A DNA stretch of 64,000 bases from an uncultured archaeon. GTDB lineage: Archaea; Micrarchaeota; Micrarchaeia; Micrarchaeales; CABMGC01. The notes beneath the pieces are model-generated. The model was not told the origin of the DNA and ran no database searches. It was given only the letters and a program-made list of their open reading frames with translations. The stretch's first letter is position 1. Every line of letters begins with the position of its first letter. The DNA lies in the NCBI GenBank assembly GCA_963830445.1, contig CAWHMC010000015.1, forward strand, positions 3,999 through 67,998, given 5' to 3'. Of the stretch, positions 3,349 to 19,890 are shown one piece after another. Position numbers and translations under genes: made by a program.

Positions 3349-3822
3349 ATGGCAGCTAAAACCCTACAAACCGCAAAGCCGAAGATGCTGGTGATACAGA
3401 CGCCCAACGACCCTCTGCTCGCGCTCCGAGCAAGGATCGCGCATGCGGATAGCGCAAAGAATCCCATCCGTGGGGTTCTCAGGTATGAGAGCCGCGAACA
3501 GGTGACAGCGACGGGTACGAAGCGCTCACCACGCAAGGAGGCGGTGACCGCAGACGGCAAGCACATAACACTTATCCTAAGGAGCGAGGCCGCCTTCGGC
3601 TCCAGCTCGCCCGGCGAGCTGAGACTGGCCACGGTAAAGGCAAAGGAACTGCTGAGAAAAGTCTCAGAGGCGTTGAACGTGCGATGGAACGTCCAGCTAC
3701 GGCCGTCGGCCCGCGGGTTCTTCAGGCTCAAGGTCCACGGACTGGATGCGGACAAGGCGAGGGACTGCTCGAACTTCTGCGACCGGGTCTCGCCTGCATT
3801 CTCAGACCTGCTGCGAACATAA
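3349..3822 (+). CDS. Orphan paralog array member A
   Basis: TATATATC box 3312-3319; KPKMLV..NDPLL resembles member C; RGFFRLKV resembles B/E RGYL. Confidence 0.65.
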   Translation: MAAKTLQTAKPKMLVIQTPNDPLLALRARIAHADSAKNPIRGVLRYESREQVTATGTKRSPRKEAVTADGKHITLILRSEAAFGSSSPGELRLATVKAKELLRKVSEALNVRWNVQLRPSARGFFRLKVHGLDADKARDCSNFCDRVSPAFSDLLRT

Positions 3823-3895
3823 TCTTTATCCCGACAGCCGTCATAGGTTCTAGATAGTCGTAAATATCAGGAAATTCATAATATTGAATGATAAT

Positions 3896-4540
3896 ATGTC
3901 CGGCAAGAACAGTTTTGTCGTCAAGCACGTACCTGTTACTTTTAAGCAGTACCAGCTGGGCTTCATGCGCGTGGACCTGCGCGAGAGCGCTCCACGGCCG
4001 GAACTGAAGGCACCCGCCCTCGCCGAAGTGAACCCCGACGCCTGGCTGAAGGAGATGAAGCGCACGCTCCCGGCCCGGATGGAGAAGCTGTGCGATGCAG
4101 TACTGTCGACCGACCCTCCTGCAAATATCCAGTACGTCGCGCCGGGCATTCTCCAGAGCGAGTTCTCAAACGGCACCCTGACAGAGCGCGTGGCCTACGA
4201 CATGTCCCACATCTCCGATCGCACCATAGGCGAGGTGGTCGACAAACTTGGCCTGACGCTGGTAAATGTGGCCTGCGACCAGAGGAAGTCCGGCCTGCTG
4301 TGCAACTCGGAGGGCGCTTTCGACGTGATGGGCGGCCACATAATCCGCCACCTCTACAGCTCCTATGCGGCCCTGTTGAGGTACGGGAAGGTCCAGATGG
4401 TGGCCAACAAGCGCGGCTACCTGGGCCTCAGCATAAGCGACCCCGGGTATGACGATCCGGAGCAGGGCGAGCGACTCAAGGAGGAGCACATAAAATTCCT
4501 GAGGTCGACCCTCAAGGCGGCGCAGCGCCAGATTGCCTGA
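3896..4540 (+). CDS. Orphan paralog array member B
   Basis: TAAATATC 3861-3868; AYDMSH shared with C; KRGYLGL shared with E. Confidence 0.7.
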   Translation: MSGKNSFVVKHVPVTFKQYQLGFMRVDLRESAPRPELKAPALAEVNPDAWLKEMKRTLPARMEKLCDAVLSTDPPANIQYVAPGILQSEFSNGTLTERVAYDMSHISDRTIGEVVDKLGLTLVNVACDQRKSGLLCNSEGAFDVMGGHIIRHLYSSYAALLRYGKVQMVANKRGYLGLSISDPGYDDPEQGERLKEEHIKFLRSTLKAAQRQIA

Positions 4541-4620
4541 ATCAGTGTCTGATGCTTTGCGGCCTTGCGGCCAGATACGGTTAAATATCTAAAACACACC
4601 AATACAATCGTGAAATTACT

Positions 4621-5304
4621 ATGCACAGCAGCAAGCCAAGGTTCCTGGTAAAAGCGATAATCAACGACCCCAGCCTGCTCCGCCTGGGCATAGAGCAGGT
4701 CCGACTAATCGATGAGAAGCGACCGTCAGGTGATACGGGACGTACGGCTCCCATTACTCACAATCTCCCTCGGAACGAGGCACGGGAAAGCTACAGCTCG
4801 ATCCTAGGGCAGTACGACACGTTCGACGATGGCCAGGAGATAAAGGAGGACAAAACTCCCCTTAGAGTAATCCGCGGGACAAGGGCCAACAACTTCGAGC
4901 ACTGCACACTGCACGTCACGGCGAGCTATGACATGAGCCACAAGGACTTCGACGCTCTCGTCGAAATAGTCAGAACCCTGAGCAAGATAGCCACAAAATT
5001 CGCCGGCGAGGAGCTGCAGACCCTCTTCCGCGAATCAAAGAATGCCTACAGCGATGACGGCTTTTATGTTCAATCAGGAACGATAAAACCCGACACCTCG
5101 GACACCCAGGTCGCCGCAGTACTAGAGCGCGGCCACATAAAGATATTCGCGATAAGGGATATCTCTCCCAACCGGCAGAGCAACGACCGGATAAGCATCG
5201 AGGTGAACGACGTGCCCGTCAACGCACCTTCCAAGGAAGAGATATTTAATTTTGCAGAGAACGCGCTCTGCTTCTTCATGAGGCAACTGCCTCCCGGCAG
5301 GTAG
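4621..5304 (+). CDS. Orphan paralog array member C
   Basis: TAAATATC 4582-4589; SYDMSH and AAVLERGHI align with B. Confidence 0.7.
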   Translation: MHSSKPRFLVKAIINDPSLLRLGIEQVRLIDEKRPSGDTGRTAPITHNLPRNEARESYSSILGQYDTFDDGQEIKEDKTPLRVIRGTRANNFEHCTLHVTASYDMSHKDFDALVEIVRTLSKIATKFAGEELQTLFRESKNAYSDDGFYVQSGTIKPDTSDTQVAAVLERGHIKIFAIRDISPNRQSNDRISIEVNDVPVNAPSKEEIFNFAENALCFFMRQLPPGR

Positions 5305-5312
5305 GTGATGAG

Positions 5313-5756
5313 ATGACCCGAACAATAGCAGGCAGAGCGGAAGGCGCAAGGCAGAAGGCGCTGAACCCCGCATTCCTACTCCAGGCTCTTGCTCGCCGCG
5401 GAGTGCTTGAGCGCAAACCTCTGATAATTGAGAGCTTTGAGCTCCTGCTGACAGGCACCCCTGCATACAAGGCGGCCTACGACGGCGTCAGCGCAACAAT
5501 CGTCAACCGAACGGTAATACTCGAGGCCAGAACCGACAAGGAGCTGAACGCAACTCTCGCTGAAAAGGCCAAGATATTTATGCGGGACAGCACGCATGCG
5601 AAGGAGGCGCGACGCAGATCCGGGTTGAAGATGCGGAATGGTGTGATCACTCTCACCTACTTCGAAGTGGACGTGAAGAACGGGGAGCTGAAGCACTACG
5701 CGAAGCTCGCCGATCATCTGCTCGAAGCGCTTGCCAAGGCGCTCAGGCAAGCCTGA
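5313..5756 (+). CDS. Orphan hypothetical protein, possible array member D
   Basis: GGTGA RBS after member C stop; only weak similarity to A. Confidence 0.6.
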   Translation: MTRTIAGRAEGARQKALNPAFLLQALARRGVLERKPLIIESFELLLTGTPAYKAAYDGVSATIVNRTVILEARTDKELNATLAEKAKIFMRDSTHAKEARRRSGLKMRNGVITLTYFEVDVKNGELKHYAKLADHLLEALAKALRQA

Positions 5757-5808
5757 GTCTGGCGACTACTAATAAATATCTGAACCTATAGAGGGTTTCT
5801 GTGATGCG

Positions 5809-6387
5809 ATGACCAAGATTCAAAGGAAGCACGAAGTCAGGCAAGGATTTGACCTGAATGGGATAGGCCCCTTCTCCGACCTGCTGCGCCCGTACAAGTT
5901 CGAGAGCCAAGAGGATGCGATCCCCGGAGTGAAGAGAAGCGTCCTGGAGATACAATCGGGCAAGGCCTCCGTGTTCGAGTACGAGAGGTTGGGTGTCGTG
6001 CCCAACACGCTTCCAGAGCTAAAGAGGACAGTCACAGGGCTAAATGAGATCTTCGTGAAGATGGCAGCTTCAAACGGTCTATCCGCTCTCCTGAAAGAGG
6101 AGCCCTCCATACCTGCCTTCACGCCCCTGGACGGAATAATACGGGACGGCCTTTACGAAGAGGTCTACGAGCTCGCAGGCCACCTATTCATCAAGAACGG
6201 AAGGGCAATCACCCATGCCAGCAGGCGCGGCTATCTCCTCATAGACTTCAAGGACCTGGCCAGGGAAGAGATAGCTCCGGCAACAAGGCTGGCGAGAGAC
6301 GCACTGGCAGAGTTCACGAAAGAGGAGGAAGCAATGAAGACTCTCGAGTTCGTGAACAGCCTCACGCTGTTGGGGGCCAGCGACTGA
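5809..6387 (+). CDS. Orphan paralog array member E
   Basis: TAAATATC 5773-5780; LSALL..AF..NGRAITHASRRGYLLI aligns with B. Confidence 0.7.
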   Translation: MTKIQRKHEVRQGFDLNGIGPFSDLLRPYKFESQEDAIPGVKRSVLEIQSGKASVFEYERLGVVPNTLPELKRTVTGLNEIFVKMAASNGLSALLKEEPSIPAFTPLDGIIRDGLYEEVYELAGHLFIKNGRAITHASRRGYLLIDFKDLAREEIAPATRLARDALAEFTKEEEAMKTLEFVNSLTLLGASD

Positions 6388-6401: not shown

Positions 6402-7727
6402 TCACTTGCATCCAGCAGCGAACGTCTTGACCACACTGTCAAGCGCTGCGCCTCGCGGCTTCAGTTCGTAACCCACCTGCACCAGCGGCTTGTTTATCTT
6501 CATCAGCGTGCGCAGGTCGGTAGGCGTGGCCGAGATTACCACGTCACACTTCGCTTTGTTCACCGAGCTCTCCAGGTCCTTCACCTCCTTCGGGCTGTAT
6601 CCGACAGCCGGCATCTCAATGTTGAGCCGCGGATACTTGTCAAACACCTTTCGTATCTCTCCGACTGCAGAGTCTCTGGCCTTCGCGAATGAGCGGGCTT
6701 TGTACTCTTTTGCAGCCACCATCCCTGCTCCGATGCGCATCCCACCGTGGGTTATCGTTGGACCGTCCTCTATCACCAGCACGCGCCTGCCCTTTATCAG
6801 TTCGGGCTTGTCTGGCAGTACCACCGAATCCGCACAGATGACCGTGGCTTTCGGATTGATCTGCTTAAGGTCCTCCTTCAGCAGCGCAAGTTCGCTCTTC
6901 GTTGCGGAGTTCACCTTGTTTATTATTAGCACGTCCGCCATCCTCGCGCACGTCTCGCCGGGATAATAGGTAAGCTCGTTGCCGGCGCGCAGCGGGTCGG
7001 CGACGGTTATGAAAAGGTCGGGCTTGAAGAACGGCGCATCGTTGTTGCCGCCGTCCCAGAGGACCACGTCCGCTTCCTTCTCAGCCGCACGCAGTATGCG
7101 CTCATAATCTACACCAGCGTATACGATGAACTTGTTGCGTATGTGCGGTTCGTAATCCTCGCGCTCCTCGATCGTTGTCTTGTACCTGTCAAGGTCCTTT
7201 AGAGAGGCGAAGCGCTCGACCTGCTGGTCCTTGAGCACGCCATAGGGCATCGGATGACGCACGACAACCACGCGCAGCCCTAGTTTGCGCAGCATAAGTG
7301 CGATGTATCGCGAGGTCTGGCTCTTTCCGCAGCCGGTGCGCACGGCGCAGACAGCGATAACCGGTTTAGTAGACTTAATCATCGTGCGTTCCGGAGCGAC
7401 CAGCCAGAAGTCAGCTCCGGCTGCGTTTGCAATTGCAGCTTTGTGCATTACATCGGCGTAGGGCAGGTCGCTGTAGGCCTGTATGCAGATCTCTACCTCG
7501 AACTTCTTTATGAGGGCCGGCAGTTCAGATTCATCGTGTATCCGTATCCCCCTGGGATACAGCCGACCGCTCAGTTCCTTCGGGTAAATGCGATCGGAGA
7601 TGTAGGGTATCTGATTGGCTGTGAAGGCAACGACGTTATATGCCGGATCATCACGAAAGAGTACATTGAAGTCGTGGAAGTCCCTTCCTGCAGCACCAAT
7701 AATTATCACATTCTTTTTCTTTGACAT
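6402..7727 (-). CDS. arcE: COG2403 P-loop NTPase / cDPG-synthetase-like protein; probable arginine synthetase ArcE
   Basis: GAAGRDFHDFN, AVRTGCGKSQ, RHPMPYG, TIEEREDYE, WDGGNND, EDGPT..HGG; clustered with OTC and carbamate kinase. Confidence 0.75.
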   Translation of the reverse strand: MSKKKNVIIIGAAGRDFHDFNVLFRDDPAYNVVAFTANQIPYISDRIYPKELSGRLYPRGIRIHDESELPALIKKFEVEICIQAYSDLPYADVMHKAAIANAAGADFWLVAPERTMIKSTKPVIAVCAVRTGCGKSQTSRYIALMLRKLGLRVVVVRHPMPYGVLKDQQVERFASLKDLDRYKTTIEEREDYEPHIRNKFIVYAGVDYERILRAAEKEADVVLWDGGNNDAPFFKPDLFITVADPLRAGNELTYYPGETCARMADVLIINKVNSATKSELALLKEDLKQINPKATVICADSVVLPDKPELIKGRRVLVIEDGPTITHGGMRIGAGMVAAKEYKARSFAKARDSAVGEIRKVFDKYPRLNIEMPAVGYSPKEVKDLESSVNKAKCDVVISATPTDLRTLMKINKPLVQVGYELKPRGAALDSVVKTFAAGCK

Positions 7728-7789
7728 GAGAGCACCAAAGATAGATTCTATGGCTGTATCTAAATAAGTTCGCTGCCGTCAGATGCCTG

Positions 7790-8086
7790 TTAGTCAAGGA
7801 ACTTCTTTATCCCGAATCCGAACATCAGCACCATGAGCCAGAATCCGACCAGCAGCACCGGCAGCGCATAGCCGTCGTACAGGTTGAACACCACCAGGCC
7901 CGCCACGATTATCGTCGCAGCCATAAAGTTTGCCAGCCCGAAGAGTACGTTGGTTCTGGGCTTCGACTTTTGGCCGAATGGGCTCTTGAATATCCTACCG
8001 GCCGCGCCGAACGCGAAGTGCGGCATCCCATTGCCCAACAAGAACCCTATTATGAAATACCATATAAGAAAGAGTTCAGATGCCAT
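7790..8086 (-). CDS. Small three-helix membrane protein in the arc cluster
   Basis: ATG at 8086 after GAGGG, 4 nt past the arcC stop; three hydrophobic segments; NGMPHF..G..F.SPF. Confidence 0.65.
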   Translation of the reverse strand: MASELFLIWYFIIGFLLGNGMPHFAFGAAGRIFKSPFGQKSKPRTNVLFGLANFMAATIIVAGLVVFNLYDGYALPVLLVGFWLMVLMFGFGIKKFLD

Positions 8087-8090
8087 GCCC

Positions 8091-9017
8091 TCACACAATA
8101 GTTGTACCTGCCTTTCCCTCAAGCGCACCATCTGAATTCTCCAGCGAGGTAATGATGGCCTTGTTGCCCGTAGCTTTGACGAAAGCTACTACTGCCTCAA
8201 TCTTAGGCCTCATCGTCCCGTTCTCAAACTGGTTGCTTGCCAGATGGGCGTTGCACTCTCGAACGCTGACCTTTGTCAGCTTCTGCTGGTTCTTCTTCCT
8301 ATAGTTGATGAATACGTGGTCAACATCTGTAAGTATCATAAACCTATCGACATTCAGGCTCCTTGCAAGCAGCGACGATGCATGGTCCTTGTCAATCACC
8401 GCATCAACGCCTGTCAACACTCCTACTTCTCTCACCACCGGCACTCCGCCTCCGCCCGTACATACAACAATCTTTTTCTCCGCCACGAGCTTGCGTATTG
8501 TGTCCAGTTCAACTATCTCGAGAGGCATTGGTGACGGCACCACCCTCCTGTACTTCCCGTCCTCGCGCACCAGCGTCCATCCGAACTCCTTCGCCAGCTT
8601 GTCTGCTTCCCTTTTTTCATAGAACGGCCCCACGGGCTTCGCCGGGTTCTTGAAATGCGGATCCTTGCTGCTGACCACCGTTTGCGTAAGCACGCACGCT
8701 ACCTCCTTCGAGATTCCCGCCTTGCGCAGCTCGTTAGCGATCGCCTGCGAGATCATGTAGCCCATCATCCCCTGGCTCTCACCTCCGCACACATGCAGTG
8801 GCATCGTCGGAAGTCTCGATCTGGCAAGCTCGTAGCGCAGGAGGATGTCGCCCACCTGCGGGCCGTTGCCATGGGTTATCACAACGTTGTGGCCCTTCTT
8901 GATTATCTTCACTATGTGCCTGGCGGTGTTCACTATGTTCGCTTGCTGCTCCTCGTAGGTCCCCTTCTGGTGCTCTTTCAATATCGCGTTCCCGCCGAGA
9001 GCAATAAGTATGTTCAT
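8091..9017 (-). CDS. arcC: Carbamate kinase
   Basis: ALGGNA, THGNGPQVG, KPVGPFY, RRVVPSP, GGGGVPV, AVIDKD. Confidence 0.95.
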   Translation of the reverse strand: MNILIALGGNAILKEHQKGTYEEQQANIVNTARHIVKIIKKGHNVVITHGNGPQVGDILLRYELARSRLPTMPLHVCGGESQGMMGYMISQAIANELRKAGISKEVACVLTQTVVSSKDPHFKNPAKPVGPFYEKREADKLAKEFGWTLVREDGKYRRVVPSPMPLEIVELDTIRKLVAEKKIVVCTGGGGVPVVREVGVLTGVDAVIDKDHASSLLARSLNVDRFMILTDVDHVFINYRKKNQQKLTKVSVRECNAHLASNQFENGTMRPKIEAVVAFVKATGNKAIITSLENSDGALEGKAGTTIV

Positions 9018-9021
9018 CCTC

Positions 9022-9957
9022 TCACTGCTTCGGCTTCCTGCCGTTTATCGTGAAGTCCAGTACGGCTGCAGCACCATAGAGCTTGTTCTCCGCCTGCTGC
9101 CACGCCACCGAGTGCTTGCCCTCCAGGACCTGGTCAGTTATCTCGAGCCCGCGATGGGCCGGCAGGCAGTGCATCACGACCGCGTCTTTCTTCGCAAGCG
9201 CAAGGAGTTTGCCGTTGATCTGGTATCCCCTGAAGGCCTTCATGCGCCTCTCGGTCTCGCCCTCTTCGCCCATGCTCACCCAGACATCAGTATACAGAAC
9301 ATCTGCATCGCCCACCGCCTCCTTCGGATCGCGGACGACGTTTATCTTTGACCCGGTCCCCCTCGCGATCGCCTTTGCCTTCGCAACTATAGCTGCGTTG
9401 GGTTCGTAGCCCTTCGGGCAGGCGACGGTCGCGTTGGCTCCGCCGGTCGCGGCTGCGAGAAGCAGGCTGTTCGCGACATTGTCTCCGTCTCCAATGTAGG
9501 CGATATTCACGCCCTTTATTCTTCCCTTCGATTCATAAATCGTGAGCATGTCCGAGACGAGCTGCGTCGGATGCTCCAGGTCGCTGAGTCCGTTTATCGT
9601 TGGAAGTCCAGAATACTCATCGAACTGCACAACTGTTTTGTTTGAGAAGACGCGCGCCACTATCGCGTCAAGGTATCCTCCAAGAACCCGTGCGGTGTCC
9701 TTTATCGGCTCACCCCTCTTGAGTTGGAGCTCTGCCTCCGCGAGATATAATGGTTTCCCCCCGAGCCGCATCGCCGCGGCCTCGAACGAGGTGCGCGTGC
9801 GCGTCGATGGCTTCTCGAAAAGAAGGCCGACTATCTTGTTGTCGAGCAGGTGAATCTCTTCCCGGGATTTTATTATTTCCTTCAGGTTCTTGGCCTTTTG
9901 GAGAAGCGGAAGAAACTCATTGACAGAAATATCCGCGAATGATACTATTGATCCCAT
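9022..9957 (-). CDS. arcB: Ornithine carbamoyltransferase
   Basis: STRTR, HPTQ, DVWVSMG, HCLP motifs; catabolic role inferred from context. Confidence 0.93.
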   Translation of the reverse strand: MGSIVSFADISVNEFLPLLQKAKNLKEIIKSREEIHLLDNKIVGLLFEKPSTRTRTSFEAAAMRLGGKPLYLAEAELQLKRGEPIKDTARVLGGYLDAIVARVFSNKTVVQFDEYSGLPTINGLSDLEHPTQLVSDMLTIYESKGRIKGVNIAYIGDGDNVANSLLLAAATGGANATVACPKGYEPNAAIVAKAKAIARGTGSKINVVRDPKEAVGDADVLYTDVWVSMGEEGETERRMKAFRGYQINGKLLALAKKDAVVMHCLPAHRGLEITDQVLEGKHSVAWQQAENKLYGAAAVLDFTINGRKPKQ

Positions 9958-10043
9958 CCAAGCACCTGCACTCAGTACTACTCACTAATTAATATCTATA
10001 AACGCTACTTCCTGCCTGCCTTCACACATGGGGGCCACATTTG

Positions 10044-10085: not shown

Positions 10086-10673
10086 TCAACTTCTAATAAT
10101 CCTATTTACCTTATTCCTAAACGAAACCGGATACGCTCTTAGATACTTATCAAGCTTCTTCCTGTCAACCCTCCGTCTTAACTCCTTTATTACGTCATCT
10201 CTCAGATAATGCCTAAAGTAGACGAAGTCTATCAACGTCTTTTCATTATCTGATACTGGCACCCACATATCATAATACCTCATCAACTCGTATCCGAAGA
10301 GCAACTTCTTGCTTATGCTCTGGATGACGTAGTTGCTGTCACCAAACTTTCTCGCGCCGCGTCTGACTTTACACGAAGTTATTACTATCGGATTAGTCCC
10401 CTGTTCCCATAGTTTTCTTATCGTAAGTGCATTTTCCAACCCGTAGTAGAAGGGCCGGAAAGCAAACCCAACAACAATTATGTCGTCATGTACGGTGTAT
10501 ATCCCCCTAGTTATACGTCTTATATCACCCCTCTTAAGAAGATAATTGATCATACGTTTTAGATAGGCATCGCTTATCCCCCTGAGTCTGAGGACCGCTC
10601 GCAATTCATAGAGCTTAAACACTGGGGACCTTGGATCATCGAAATGCGTCCGCACGTAATCGACGTACTTCAT
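10086..10673 (-). CDS. AbiEi-like type IV TA antitoxin
   Basis: N-terminal wHTH (RITRGIY), YYGLENAL, VSDNEKTLID. Confidence 0.8.
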   Translation of the reverse strand: MKYVDYVRTHFDDPRSPVFKLYELRAVLRLRGISDAYLKRMINYLLKRGDIRRITRGIYTVHDDIIVVGFAFRPFYYGLENALTIRKLWEQGTNPIVITSCKVRRGARKFGDSNYVIQSISKKLLFGYELMRYYDMWVPVSDNEKTLIDFVYFRHYLRDDVIKELRRRVDRKKLDKYLRAYPVSFRNKVNRIIRS

Positions 10674-11326
10674 GCGAATCTCCCTCTTATGTGGTTGACC
10701 ATGTTCTTGAATGACGGAACGGGCCCCTGATATATTATCGCCTTCAGATCACTTTCATTGACTGGTTCTTCTATCTTGGAGAGAAACGAGAGCACTTCTT
10801 TACGCAGTGCATTTTTGTTCTCAATATAATCGCTCAGCACATACATATCATAAATATCCCGGATGAACCGTCTATCCGAGTAGGCTGCTATTTTCTCCTC
10901 CATCAGTTTGTCTGGAGGGAGTGTAAGGACATCCGTATAGGTGCCATCCACCTTCTCAAACCTTGTTGCTATAGGTTTCATGCCTTTCTTGACGTGATTA
11001 ATCTCTACTTTTAGGTATGTATCGCCAAGTGAGAATGCCATGAACACGAGGTGGCCCGTGTCTTTTATCTTTTCCAGTCTAGCCCCGTACTCCGATGCGG
11101 CACTTTCTATCTTCGCTTTGATTGATAGAAGGCTCACGTTCGTACCTAGGTAGATGTCTATATCATTCGAGAAACGATTTCCTGAAAAGCAACGCCAGAT
11201 TGCGGTTCCACCGTGTAGCACCACGTTGCTCTCCACGTTATAAAGTATGTCTATCACCGTATCTTGGAACGTCGCTATCTCTTGATACTCCCGTTTCTTG
11301 AGAAGCTTGATTATTGGCAATTTCAT
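10670..11326 (-). CDS. AbiEii-like nucleotidyltransferase toxin
   Basis: GGTA..RFSNDID, EKIAA..R...RDIYD; ATGA overlap with the antitoxin. Confidence 0.85.
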   Translation of the reverse strand: MKLPIIKLLKKREYQEIATFQDTVIDILYNVESNVVLHGGTAIWRCFSGNRFSNDIDIYLGTNVSLLSIKAKIESAASEYGARLEKIKDTGHLVFMAFSLGDTYLKVEINHVKKGMKPIATRFEKVDGTYTDVLTLPPDKLMEEKIAAYSDRRFIRDIYDMYVLSDYIENKNALRKEVLSFLSKIEEPVNESDLKAIIYQGPVPSFKNMVNHIRGRFA

Positions 11327-11413: not shown

Positions 11414-12679
11414 TTAGTACCACCCGCGGATCTTCATCGCAGCGGCGACACGCCCAACCGCGACTATGTACGCGGCCATGCGCGGGCTGATCCTGCGGCC
11501 CAGGTCCTTGTACTTCTTCTGCGTGGCCATCACGTCGTTGAAGGATCTGGTGATTATCTTGTCCAGGCGCCGGTACACGTCCTCCTCCTCCCAGTAGAAG
11601 CTCTGCAGGTTCTGCACCCACTCGAAGTAGGAGACGATCACCCCTCCTGAGTTCACAAGAAAGTCCGGCAGGTCCATCACTCCGTTCCCGAAGAGTATCG
11701 CGTCTGCGGCCGGCGTCACCGGTCCGTTCGCCAGCTCGAGCACTATCTTCGCCTGCACCTTCGCCGCGTTCGCCTCCGTTATCTGGTTCTCAAGCGCGCA
11801 GGGAATCAGTACGTCGACCTTCAGCGTGAGCAGCTCCTCGTTCGTTATCTTCTTGCCTCCCTTGTAATTGACAACGCTGCCCGTCCTCTTCTTCGTGTCC
11901 ATCAGCTTGTCGTAGTCCAGCCCCTTAGCATCGTAGATCCCTCCGCTGGAGTCGCTCACCGCGACTATCTTCGAGCCGAAGAGCCTCTTGGAGAGGTCGA
12001 AGGCGAAGTTGCCCGCGTTCCCGAAGCCCTGAATCGCTATGGTCGCCGTCTTGAGGTTTATCTTCTTGATCTTCGCCGCCTCGCGGAGCACGTACATTCC
12101 ACCCATGGCCGTCGAGTCGAACCGTCCCTGCGAGCCGCCCACTTCAAGGGGCTTGCCAGTGATAACGCCGAACTCGTCGTAGCCCACGATCTTGCTGTAC
12201 TCGTCCATCATCCAGGCCATGTCCTGCGGGTTGGTGTAGACGTCTGGCGCGGGGATGTCCACCCGGGGCCCGATGAAGCGGCCCAGGGCGCGCACGTAGC
12301 CCCGGCAGAGGTTCTCGAGCTCCGCATCGCTCATCTTCTTCGTGTCGCAGATTATCCCGCCCTTCGCCCCTCCGTAGGGGATGTTCGCTAGGGCGCACTT
12401 CCAGGTCATCCAGGCGGAGAGCGCCTTCACCGTGCTGATGCTCTCCTGCGGATGGTAGCGTATGCCGCCCTTGCCGGGCCCGCGCGCATCGTTGTACTGC
12501 ACCCTGAAGCCCTTGAACACCTTCGTCTTCCCGTCGCGCATCTTCACCGGGATGTTTATCTCCAGCGTGCGCATGGGCTCGCGCAGTATCTGGTGGGCTG
12601 TCCTGTCGAGGCCCATTATCGCCGCGGCCGCATCCAACTGCATCTGGCTTATCTTGAACGGATCCAATTCCTCTGCCAT
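11414..12679 (-). CDS. gdhA: Glutamate dehydrogenase
   Basis: [40 protein letters not shown]. Confidence 0.95.
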
Positions 12680-17755: not shown

Positions 17756-17868
17756 GAACTTATTAAGATGTCTTGAAAATCTTGTTACATATTTTTCCCA
17801 GTGTGCGCTGCTCACGCTTTAATAAGACTTCTGCGCAAGAAAATTCTACCCGCGTTCGTGGTGTTCGG

Positions 17869-19890
17869 ATGATTGAAAGCGTTATTAAAAGAGACGGCAC
17901 GATAGTGCCCTTCAACAAGCAAAAGGTAGAGAGCGCGATACTGCGGGCGATGCAAGCCATCGGCCTGGATCTCACCGCGAACGCCAAAGCTGCCGTCGAC
18001 ATAACCGAGAATGTGGTGCAGGCTCTGGACAAGGACGGGAAGAAGCGCGCATCCGTGGAGCACATCCAGGACTGCGTGGAGAGTGCACTCGTCGCGACCG
18101 GCAACACGCCGCTCGTCAAGTCCTACATGCTCTACAGGAAGCAGCACGCGGACCTCCGCGATGCGACCTCGATCCTTGAAGACATAAAGCTGATAGAGAG
18201 CTACGTCGACCGCAAGGACTGGCTCGTCAAGGAGAACGCGAACATGGACTACTCCATACAGGGCCTCAACAACTACCTCAACTCGCGCATCATCTCCGAG
18301 TACTGGCTCAACAAGGTCTTCCCGAAGGAGGTGCGCAACGCGCACGTCAGCGGCGATTTCCACATACACAACCTGAACTTCCTGGGCCCCTACTGCGTGG
18401 GCTGGGACCTGCGCGACCTTCTGCTAAGGGGCTTCTGCGGCGCCAGCGGAAAGATCGCCTCAAAGCCCGCGAAGCACCTGCGCACGGCGCTGATGCAGAT
18501 CGTCAATTTCTTCTACACCCTGCAGGGCGAGAGCGCAGGAGCACAGGCGTTCTCCAACTTCGACACCTACCTCGCCCCGTTCATCCGCTACGACAAGCTG
18601 GACTACGAGGGAGTGAAGCAGGCGATGCAGGAGTTCCTATTCAACATGAACGTGCCCACCCGCGTGGGCTTCCAGACCCCCTTCACCAACCTTACCCTGG
18701 ACCTTAAGGTGCCGGAGTTCATGAGAAACGAGGCAGCCATAATCGGCGGGAAGCCGGCGGCTGAGCCCTATGGAGACTTCCAGAAGGAGATGGACATGCT
18801 GAACATGGCGTTCGCCGAGGTCCTTTCCGAAGGCGATGCTGTGGGCCGGGTCTTCACGTTCCCCATCCCTACCTACAACATAACCAAGGACTTCGAGTGG
18901 GAGAATCCGGCCTACCTGCCCATCTGGAAGATGACGGCGAAATACGGGATCCCCTACTTCTCAAACTTCATAAACAGCGACATGAAGCCGGAGGACGCGC
19001 GCAGCATGTGCTGCCGGCTGAGGATCGACAACCGCGAGCTCAAGAAGCGCGGCGGCGGCCTCTTCGGCGCGAATCCGCTGACCGGATCCATCGGCGTCTT
19101 CACCATAAACATGCCGCGCATCGGCTACCTCTCCAAGACCGAGGAGGCGTTCTTTGAGAGGCTCGGCGCAGTGATGGACCTGGCCAAGGAAGGGCTTGAG
19201 GTGAAGCGCAAGACCATAGAGAAGTTCACCGAGATCGGCCTCTATCCCTACTCAAAGTTCTACCTGGCCGAGATAAAGCACCGCTTCGGCGGCTACTGGA
19301 AGAACCACTTCGCCACCATAGGCCTGGTGGGGATGAACGAGGCGTGCACCAACTTCCTGGGGAAGGACATAACCACTCCCGAAGGCAAGGCGTTCGCGCT
19401 CAAGGTATTGGACTTCATGAGGGACAGGCTCGAGACCTACCAGAACGAGACGAACAGCATCTACAACCTGGAGGCGACCCCCGCGGAAAGCACAGCCTAC
19501 TCCCTCGCACGCCACGACAAGAAGAAGTTCAACGAGATACTGGTCGCGAACGAGGAGGAGTACAAGCACGGCGCCTCTCCCTACTACACCAACTCATCCC
19601 ACGTTCCAGTCGGCTACACCGACGACCTGTTCATGCTGCTGAAACAGCAGGACGAGCTCCAGACGCGCTACACCGGCGGCACGGTCATCCACGCCTTCCT
19701 CGGCGAAGCGATGGTCGACCCGATCGCGACGCGACAGCTGGTCCGCAGCATCGCGGAAAACTTCCGCCTGCCTTATTATACTATAACACCGACGTTCAGC
19801 GTCTGCCCGACGCACGGTTACATCTCCGGAGCGCACGAGTACTGCCCGAAGTGCGACCAGGCGATCCTGAACCGGGTAGTCAAACAGTGA
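17869..19890 (+). CDS. nrdD: Class III ribonucleotide reductase large chain with ATP cone
   Basis: VIKRDG ATP cone, SMCCRL finger loop, YNLEATPAE, YTNS, YTGG, CPTH..CPKC; lacks the glycyl-radical loop. Confidence 0.93.
   Translation: MIESVIKRDGTIVPFNKQKVESAILRAMQAIGLDLTANAKAAVDITENVVQALDKDGKKRASVEHIQDCVESALVATGNTPLVKSYMLYRKQHADLRDATSILEDIKLIESYVDRKDWLVKENANMDYSIQGLNNYLNSRIISEYWLNKVFPKEVRNAHVSGDFHIHNLNFLGPYCVGWDLRDLLLRGFCGASGKIASKPAKHLRTALMQIVNFFYTLQGESAGAQAFSNFDTYLAPFIRYDKLDYEGVKQAMQEFLFNMNVPTRVGFQTPFTNLTLDLKVPEFMRNEAAIIGGKPAAEPYGDFQKEMDMLNMAFAEVLSEGDAVGRVFTFPIPTYNITKDFEWENPAYLPIWKMTAKYGIPYFSNFINSDMKPEDARSMCCRLRIDNRELKKRGGGLFGANPLTGSIGVFTINMPRIGYLSKTEEAFFERLGAVMDLAKEGLEVKRKTIEKFTEIGLYPYSKFYLAEIKHRFGGYWKNHFATIGLVGMNEACTNFLGKDITTPEGKAFALKVLDFMRDRLETYQNETNSIYNLEATPAESTAYSLARHDKKKFNEILVANEEEYKHGASPYYTNSSHVPVGYTDDLFMLLKQQDELQTRYTGGTVIHAFLGEAMVDPIATRQLVRSIAENFRLPYYTITPTFSVCPTHGYISGAHEYCPKCDQAILNRVVKQ

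Follow-up and report, generated by a model that had tools for sequence, protein, structure and literature searches.

A compact gene cluster in the window, by which is meant the whole 64,000-nucleotide stretch of contig CAWHMC010000015.1 from an uncultured archaeon of the Micrarchaeota, encodes orthologs of arginine synthetase (ATP-forming arginine deiminase; ArcE), ornithine carbamoyltransferase (OTC; ArcB) and carbamate kinase (ArcC), which likely function catabolically and would convert arginine to ornithine, NH3 and CO2 with a yield of two ATP per arginine. The window belongs to a 732-kb genome of 16 contigs that is 65% complete, and all searches of the window genome reported below have this scope. 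An earlier note on this DNA had recognized co-oriented genes for OTC, carbamate kinase and a P-loop NTPase. This arrangement was confirmed, all three open reading frames (ORFs) being intact and located on the minus strand (Table 1), while a further gene encoding a 98-aa protein had been missed. The placement of the host among DPANN-type archaea in the same note is likewise supported, in that the arcE proteins of six genomes of the same order match proteins labeled Micrarchaeota, Micrarchaeia or Micrarchaeaceae by NCBI (over residues 31-400). A seventh same-order arcE matches a protein labeled Acidoferrales, a bacterium, and for eight of the 15 named proteins examined there was no matching locus.

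Assignment of the three enzymes

The translated product of the 441-aa ORF (6402-7727) has no NCBIfam match and only a weak Pfam match to cobW, while its homologs carry the labels 'predicted GTPase' or 'cyclic 2,3-diphosphoglycerate synthase', as the earlier note had anticipated. The named homologs are mostly from Micrarchaeota, with 65-83% identity among the 120 listed. A reference for the characterized arginine synthetase of Thermococcus kodakarensis (TK2200) was located by a degenerate primer scan combined with a family search, an exact scan with the forward primer having given no match. The reverse primer (PMC11032458; this paper and PMC13260591 are cited throughout from excerpts) matched 24/97 genomes in the family of genome G301 with at most one mismatch, and the gene at L064:3738-5081 in G327, which is an exact match to the reverse primer and agrees with the forward primer at 26/26 of the bases tested, was used as TK2200. 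The window protein shares 57% amino acid identity and 77% similarity with this gene product over 440 residues with one gap, as against 21% identity over 240 residues with a reference cyclic 2,3-diphosphoglycerate synthetase (CpgS; L054), which is nearly identical to PDB 9SXB and whose gene overlaps one encoding a 2-phosphoglycerate kinase. Its identity to 13 CpgS sequences ranges from 17 to 21%, and that of TK2200 itself from 19 to 23%.

A tree of 71 rows separates the 58 for ArcE, with the window protein among them, from the 13 for CpgS by a very long branch with a Shimodaira-Hasegawa-like approximate likelihood ratio test (SH-aLRT) value of 100, this being a quick tree with no bootstrap in which the CpgS rows are all derived from relatives of G301 and the ArcE rows, comprising the 30 best matches and hand-picked others, are a biased sample. 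The grouping with ArcE that the earlier note had proposed to look for in such a tree is thus recovered. Furthermore, the window protein retains every one of the 83 columns with a conservation of 85% or more across 53 other homologs (the TK2200 gene retains 82), and 105/118 columns which are invariant in 18 ArcE sequences from outside the Micrarchaeota. Conserved motifs include GAAGRDFH (residues 11-18), the P-loop GCGKS and WDGGNND (residues 224-230). The best fold matches of its AlphaFold model (predicted local distance difference test, pLDDT: 94.8) are CpgS, followed by the LpxK structure 4EHY, which was also the structure superimposed on the TK2200 model in PMC11032458. As such, the assignment of the P-loop protein to ArcE, which the earlier note had put forward, is secure by sequence. 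Four proteins of 651-806 aa in which the C-terminal part resembles ArcE (P0125, P0132, P0153 and P0207) were observed among the 50%-cluster representatives and are possible fusions.

The OTC (9022-9957) scored 398 bits against the NCBIfam equivalog TIGR00658 (cut-off: 281), but stayed below the putrescine carbamoyltransferase model (273 bits; cut-off: 500), and contains the motifs STRT51, HPTQ129, DVWVSMG224 and HCLP263. The carbamate kinase (8091-9017) scored 408 bits against the equivalog TIGR00746 (cut-off: 358), with the motifs GGNA, HGNGPQVG and IDKD.

Proposed pathway and its distribution in the Micrarchaeota

In the proposed pathway ArcE would, by virtue of its orthology to TK2200, convert arginine, ADP and Pi into citrulline, NH3 and ATP, perhaps with phosphorylated citrulline as an intermediate at the P-loop site, which is our own guess. 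ArcB would convert citrulline and phosphate into ornithine and carbamoyl phosphate, the phosphate of which would be transferred to ADP by ArcC, giving the second ATP; for both of these enzymes the family is shown and the direction is presumed. The source of the arginine would be a host or peptides, with an unlinked APC permease on contig C6 as a possible route of uptake, and the ornithine would be exported or transaminated. The reaction catalyzed by TK2200 is reversible and L-arginine-specific in vitro, agmatine, D-arginine and guanidine being rejected, with an equilibrium constant of about 10 at 80 °C, and ArcE produced arginine in vivo when citrulline was given (PMC11032458). The yield of two ATP per arginine suggested in the earlier note follows from the stoichiometry in the same paper if the pathway is catabolic, a direction which genome content favors but does not prove.

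An arginine deiminase, which the earlier note had stated to be lacking in the window, was also not found beyond it, there being no match to PF02274 in the whole genome. Carbamoyl phosphate synthetase (CPS), ArgG and an aspartate transcarbamoylase or other second carbamoyltransferase were not found in the window genome either, nor were dihydroorotate dehydrogenase and the HypF zinc finger, the latter two being likewise not found in G101, G111 and G194 (90-94% complete). Ornithine cyclodeaminase was not found in any of five genomes, that of the window included. Subunits of the ATP synthase alpha/beta family are present, as are one APC amino-acid permease, encoded on a contig other than that of the cluster, and a gene of the orotidine monophosphate (OMP) decarboxylase family.

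Across an evenly drawn sample of 301 genomes of the phylum, 166 matched the window ArcE, and with the exclusion of G115 and G215 (E about 1e-4) 164 arcE genomes were retained. Carbamate kinase is encoded in 147/301 genomes, with 129 harboring both genes (129/164 arcE genomes; 129/147 kinase genomes), 35 arcE alone, 18 the kinase alone and 119 neither. Matches to PF02274 were observed in 32/301 genomes, eleven of which contain a clear deiminase, defined as a full-length match with an E-value of 1.2e-39 or better. None of these eleven harbors arcE, and ten harbor a carbamate kinase. Besides one match taken up below, the other 20 are weak and partial and several occur in arcE genomes; one that was checked scored better as a DDAH-like protein. 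A second set of 80 genomes was picked by hand, of which 79 have a completeness of 90% or more; arcE is present in 65 of the 80 and absent from 15. OTC-family genes are present in 68 of the 80, the CPS large chain in 23 (21 over the cut-off) and ArgG in nine. All three genes of the pathway occur in 54/65 arcE genomes of this set, and in 38 of these 54 neither CPS nor ArgG was matched. In G005, G007, G030, G043, G045, G052 and G059 (93-98% complete), which carry arcE, neither OTC nor carbamate kinase was found, and ArcE may be used on its own there.

Evidence against a catabolic role and alternative functions

Several observations weigh against a catabolic, arginine-specific pathway. The predicted substrate specificity of the window ArcE rests on overall identity, and 13 of the 118 columns invariant in ArcE from outside the Micrarchaeota are altered in it. 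The cluster contains no arginine/ornithine antiporter, and the APC permease scores 32 bits against a cut-off of 591 for the arginine-ornithine antiporter model. Genes for an arginase-family (agmatinase-type) enzyme and a class III aminotransferase were not found in the window genome and are present in four of four relatives checked, while every gene reported as not found there is weak evidence because more than a third of the genome is missing. As an OMP-decarboxylase-family gene is present, carbamoyl phosphate may still be used for pyrimidines. In T. kodakarensis, deletion of arcC had little effect, and arcE and arcB supplied carbamoyl phosphate (PMC13260591). At the level of the phylum, the 35 of 164 arcE genomes without a kinase match, and the seven of 65 selected arcE genomes with neither an OTC nor a kinase match, do not conform to a three-enzyme pathway; G135 combines arcE (with one internal TAG) with a full-span PF02274 match (E 7e-24), and related genomes are not independent.

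The main rival to the catabolic reading is that the same enzymes principally supply carbamoyl phosphate from arginine, through ArcE and ArcB, to feed either pyrimidine formation or the maturation of hydrogenases, while ArcC serves as overflow. Such a role has been shown genetically in T. kodakarensis (PMC13260591), and would be in line with the lack of a detectable CPS and the presence of the OMP-decarboxylase-family gene in the window genome, of which about 35% is missing, as well as with a second, aspartate-type carbamoyltransferase match in some arcE relatives. It is nevertheless rather unlikely here, as the sinks that it calls for, represented by aspartate transcarbamoylase, dihydroorotate dehydrogenase and the HypF zinc finger, were not found in this genome, nor the latter two in G101, G111 and G194, and arcC lies only 4 nt from arcB.

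It is improbable that the ArcE ortholog has come to use a different guanidino compound, for instance agmatine or a modified arginine, and that the carbamoyltransferase acts on the corresponding amine. This reading draws on the 43% of residues which differ from TK2200, on the 13 altered columns and on the family having a single assayed member (PMC11032458; PMC13260591). On the other hand, all 83 broadly conserved columns are retained, the transferase scores above the OTC cut-off and far below that for putrescine carbamoyltransferase, and TK2200 itself did not accept agmatine, D-arginine or guanidine (PMC11032458).

Still less probable is a pathway running in reverse for arginine synthesis in the window organism, in which ArcC would form carbamoyl phosphate, ArcB citrulline, and ArcE would fix ammonia. 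The reversibility of the reaction, its equilibrium constant and the arginine formed in vivo from supplied citrulline (PMC11032458) are compatible with this direction, as is the failure to find ArgG here. CPS was, however, not found either, and the carbamate kinase of T. kodakarensis could not replace the arcE/arcB route to carbamoyl phosphate (PMC13260591); furthermore, no class III aminotransferase was found in the window genome, this being the only ornithine synthesis gene searched for.

Finally, it is scarcely credible that the P-loop gene encodes a CpgS beside incidental neighbors, and this identity was rejected: CpgS (PDB 8ORK, 8ORU and 9SXB) is a distant homolog with a related P-loop fold, which accounts for the names of the homologs in NCBI, and ranks first among PDB matches in both sequence (E 1e-6) and fold, the former by default since no close ArcE relative was returned, but it aligns only partially and at about 20% identity, in the same range as for TK2200, forms a clade of its own that excludes the window protein, has no counterpart of the N-terminal GAAGRDFH motif in the alignment and pairs with a 2-phosphoglycerate kinase, which, like arcA, was not found when the window genome was searched as the earlier note had advised (for the kinase with a single protein as query, in a search that included no positive control) and is not encoded in the cluster.

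Gene order, related loci and significance

In the order arcB, arcC, 98-aa gene and arcE, the genes of the cluster are separated by 4, 4 and 62 nt (Table 1). The first three probably form a single transcript, while arcE possibly has its own promoter at the candidate TATA-like box ahead of it. For context, the pattern TTTA[AGT]ATA, which describes the candidate arcE box, occurs at 0.16 per kb in the genome, and TTTATA, the candidate arcB box, at 0.54 per kb. The arcE box was spotted with the archaeal TATA consensus.

Table 1. Features of the arc cluster and its upstream neighbors in the window.
Feature	Position	Strand	Basis or remark
arcE, arginine synthetase (ATP-forming arginine deiminase) ortholog, 441 aa	6402..7727	minus	P-loop GCGKS at residues 132-136
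Candidate TATA-like box TTTAGATA	7757..7764	minus	By eye, picked post hoc; 30-37 nt ahead of arcE start
Conserved hydrophobic 98-aa protein	7790..8086	minus	ORF; begins 4 nt past arcC stop
arcC, carbamate kinase, 308 aa	8091..9017	minus	TIGR00746; begins 4 nt past arcB stop
arcB, ornithine carbamoyltransferase (OTC), 311 aa	9022..9957	minus	TIGR00658
Candidate TATA-like box TTTATA	9997..10002	minus	By eye, picked post hoc; 40-45 nt ahead of arcB start
AbiEii/AbiEi type IV toxin-antitoxin pair	10086-11326		Pfam; between gdhA and arcB
gdhA	11414-12679		Upstream of arcB beyond the AbiE pair

The 98-aa protein, which contains hydrophobic stretches, has no Pfam or NCBIfam match. Its 383 homologs, the best sharing 67-78% identity, are mostly named 'hypothetical', with named ones from Nitrososphaerota, and the family occurs in 10/301 genomes of the phylum. 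Arc genes were not found beside its homologs in any of 32 other loci (nine from the phylum and 23 metagenomic, many shorter than 2 kb), one near-linkage being observed in G194, where it is located 1.8 kb upstream of arcE. A role as a dedicated transporter or partner is thus unsupported, and the gene is probably a passenger rather than a component of the pathway.

The earlier note had also read the nearby gdhA as a sign of an amino-acid catabolism neighborhood. This was not supported: glutamate dehydrogenase matches are absent from all 68 related arc loci (most with flanks of 1.5-6 kb) and the AbiE pair intervenes between gdhA and arcB, so that gdhA was rejected as part of the module. The AbiE pair has a lower G+C content (42-44%, against 54-56%), and two more related pairs, one seemingly broken, lie elsewhere in the genome. 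On the plus strand, five or six co-oriented ORFs encoding 147-227 aa (3349-6387) end convergently at arcE, with no Pfam match for the five that were searched. The regions 76-2902 and 17773-19890 encode ordinary functions, namely a threonine-synthase-like pyridoxal phosphate enzyme, a Fic protein, an Fe/Mn superoxide dismutase and a class III ribonucleotide reductase.

The adjacency of the three genes is exceptional among the relatives. Of the 29 best non-self loci, viewed with 1.5-kb flanks, that of G111 alone has arcB or arcC next to arcE, and of 20 further loci with wider flanks none does, while five loci, chosen since their coordinates suggested adjacency, have arcE beside arcC alone. An arcE-arcC-arcB cluster was also observed at L038, in a metagenome-assembled genome of Ca. 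Nomurabacteria, a candidate phyla radiation bacterium. Within the taxonomic order, the genes usually found around arcE are, as judged by reading the sequences, gyrB, one resembling radical-SAM genes, one for a small membrane protein and one that is HD-like; in the window genome gyrB is located on another contig, with no arcE adjoining it. Within the genus, the three genes of G101 are divided between two places. No arcE or kinase match was obtained in G049, G210 and G285, and no OTC match either in G049 and G285. The window ArcE is sister to that of G111 and nested among rows of family f2 (98, 98), which suggests horizontal acquisition of arcE. Such a transfer is suggested and not shown, because an approximately unbiased (AU) test does not reject the grouping of the window ArcE with that of the same-genus G101 (p 0.189). 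A closely spaced pair of arcB and arcC is found repeatedly, in scattered genomes of the two families (L077, L079, L080, L081, L085 and L086), and the pair nearest to that of the window is found in G194 (78% and 74% identity), above that of the same-genus G101 (73% and 61%). The kinase gene adjoins a deiminase gene in G218 and G108, so that arcA and arcE backgrounds may exchange the pair.

Three genomes harbor arcE a short way upstream of a co-oriented carB-carA, namely G103 (L083:6768-12652), G006 (L084:6759-12446) and G147 (L092:1326-8348), the intervening ORF in G147 being presumably transposase-like. ArgG was not found in these genomes (96-98% complete), all of which contain OTC and carbamate kinase, and is present in G078, a fourth member of their family. 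These genomes represent a candidate case of ArcE in arginine synthesis, a use raised for other organisms in PMC11032458. Their CPS may, however, be needed for no more than pyrimidines, each of the three genomes having a second carbamoyltransferase match. At L087:1151-8523 in G264, arcE is followed by genes for a DDAH-like pentein and a diaminopimelate-epimerase-like protein and by argG/argH-like genes, with an ACT-domain gene between; a divergent arcC at this locus is seemingly split into two frames.

A broader proposal can be made only tentatively and may well prove wrong. Arginine synthetase catabolism would be a principal and overlooked source of substrate-level ATP across the Micrarchaeota, given the occurrence of arcE in 164/301 genomes and its alternation with the deiminase, with host- or peptide-derived arginine as a main fuel. 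The window genome would have reacquired the pathway from a sister family in the form of a compact cluster: arcE and kinase matches are lacking in three of the five genomes of its genus, and its ArcE is nested among those of the other family. In a separate family the same enzyme, encoded immediately ahead of carB-carA in genomes without an argG match, would be the one that makes arginine.

The ArcE enzyme and its pathway were described in 2024 (PMC11032458), and the locus is a new host for this known pathway rather than a new system, one that is common in this archaeal group. The three enzyme families are those of T. kodakarensis (TK2200, TK0871 and TK2158; PMC11032458; PMC13260591), whose ArcE aligns over its full length; a deiminase, ArgG and CPS, lacking in T. 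kodakarensis, were not found in the window genome. In T. kodakarensis, however, the arc locus tags are far apart, whereas the genes in the window are adjacent and enclose the 98-aa gene, the host is a micrarchaeote, and no pyrimidine or hydrogenase sink was found. The classical arginine deiminase pathway (ArcABC) likewise employs OTC and carbamate kinase, but its first step is a hydrolysis and it yields one ATP in total. Within the phylum, Ca. Fermentimicrarchaeum limneticum is recorded in Table S1 of PMC11032458 with no arcA, one arcC and one arcE, as a table entry only in the excerpts of that paper; the same table assigns arcC and arcE to Archaeon GW2011_AR10 and AR20, and arcA instead to Ca. 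Micrarchaeum sp. A_DKE. The paper also mentions that arcE lies close to arcB and/or arcC in some genomes. Beyond this table, the top-ranked literature matches, among which subscription journals are mostly not represented, contained nothing on ArcE in DPANN archaea or across the Micrarchaeota, and in a 2025 study of 163 Micrarchaeota genomes (PMC12892359) the words arginine, citrulline and carbamate do not occur in the main text, while its supplements may list the genes.

The window locus itself contributes little more than a neat example with three genes. Reconstructions of metabolism in DPANN archaea can overlook the arginine synthetase route, because the gene is labeled as a GTPase or cyclic 2,3-diphosphoglycerate synthetase. 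If the pathway works as in Thermococcus, more than half of the sampled Micrarchaeota would possess a redox-neutral energy route yielding two ATP. If true, this suggests arginine supplementation for the cultivation of these archaea, and a drain of arginine as a cost to their hosts.

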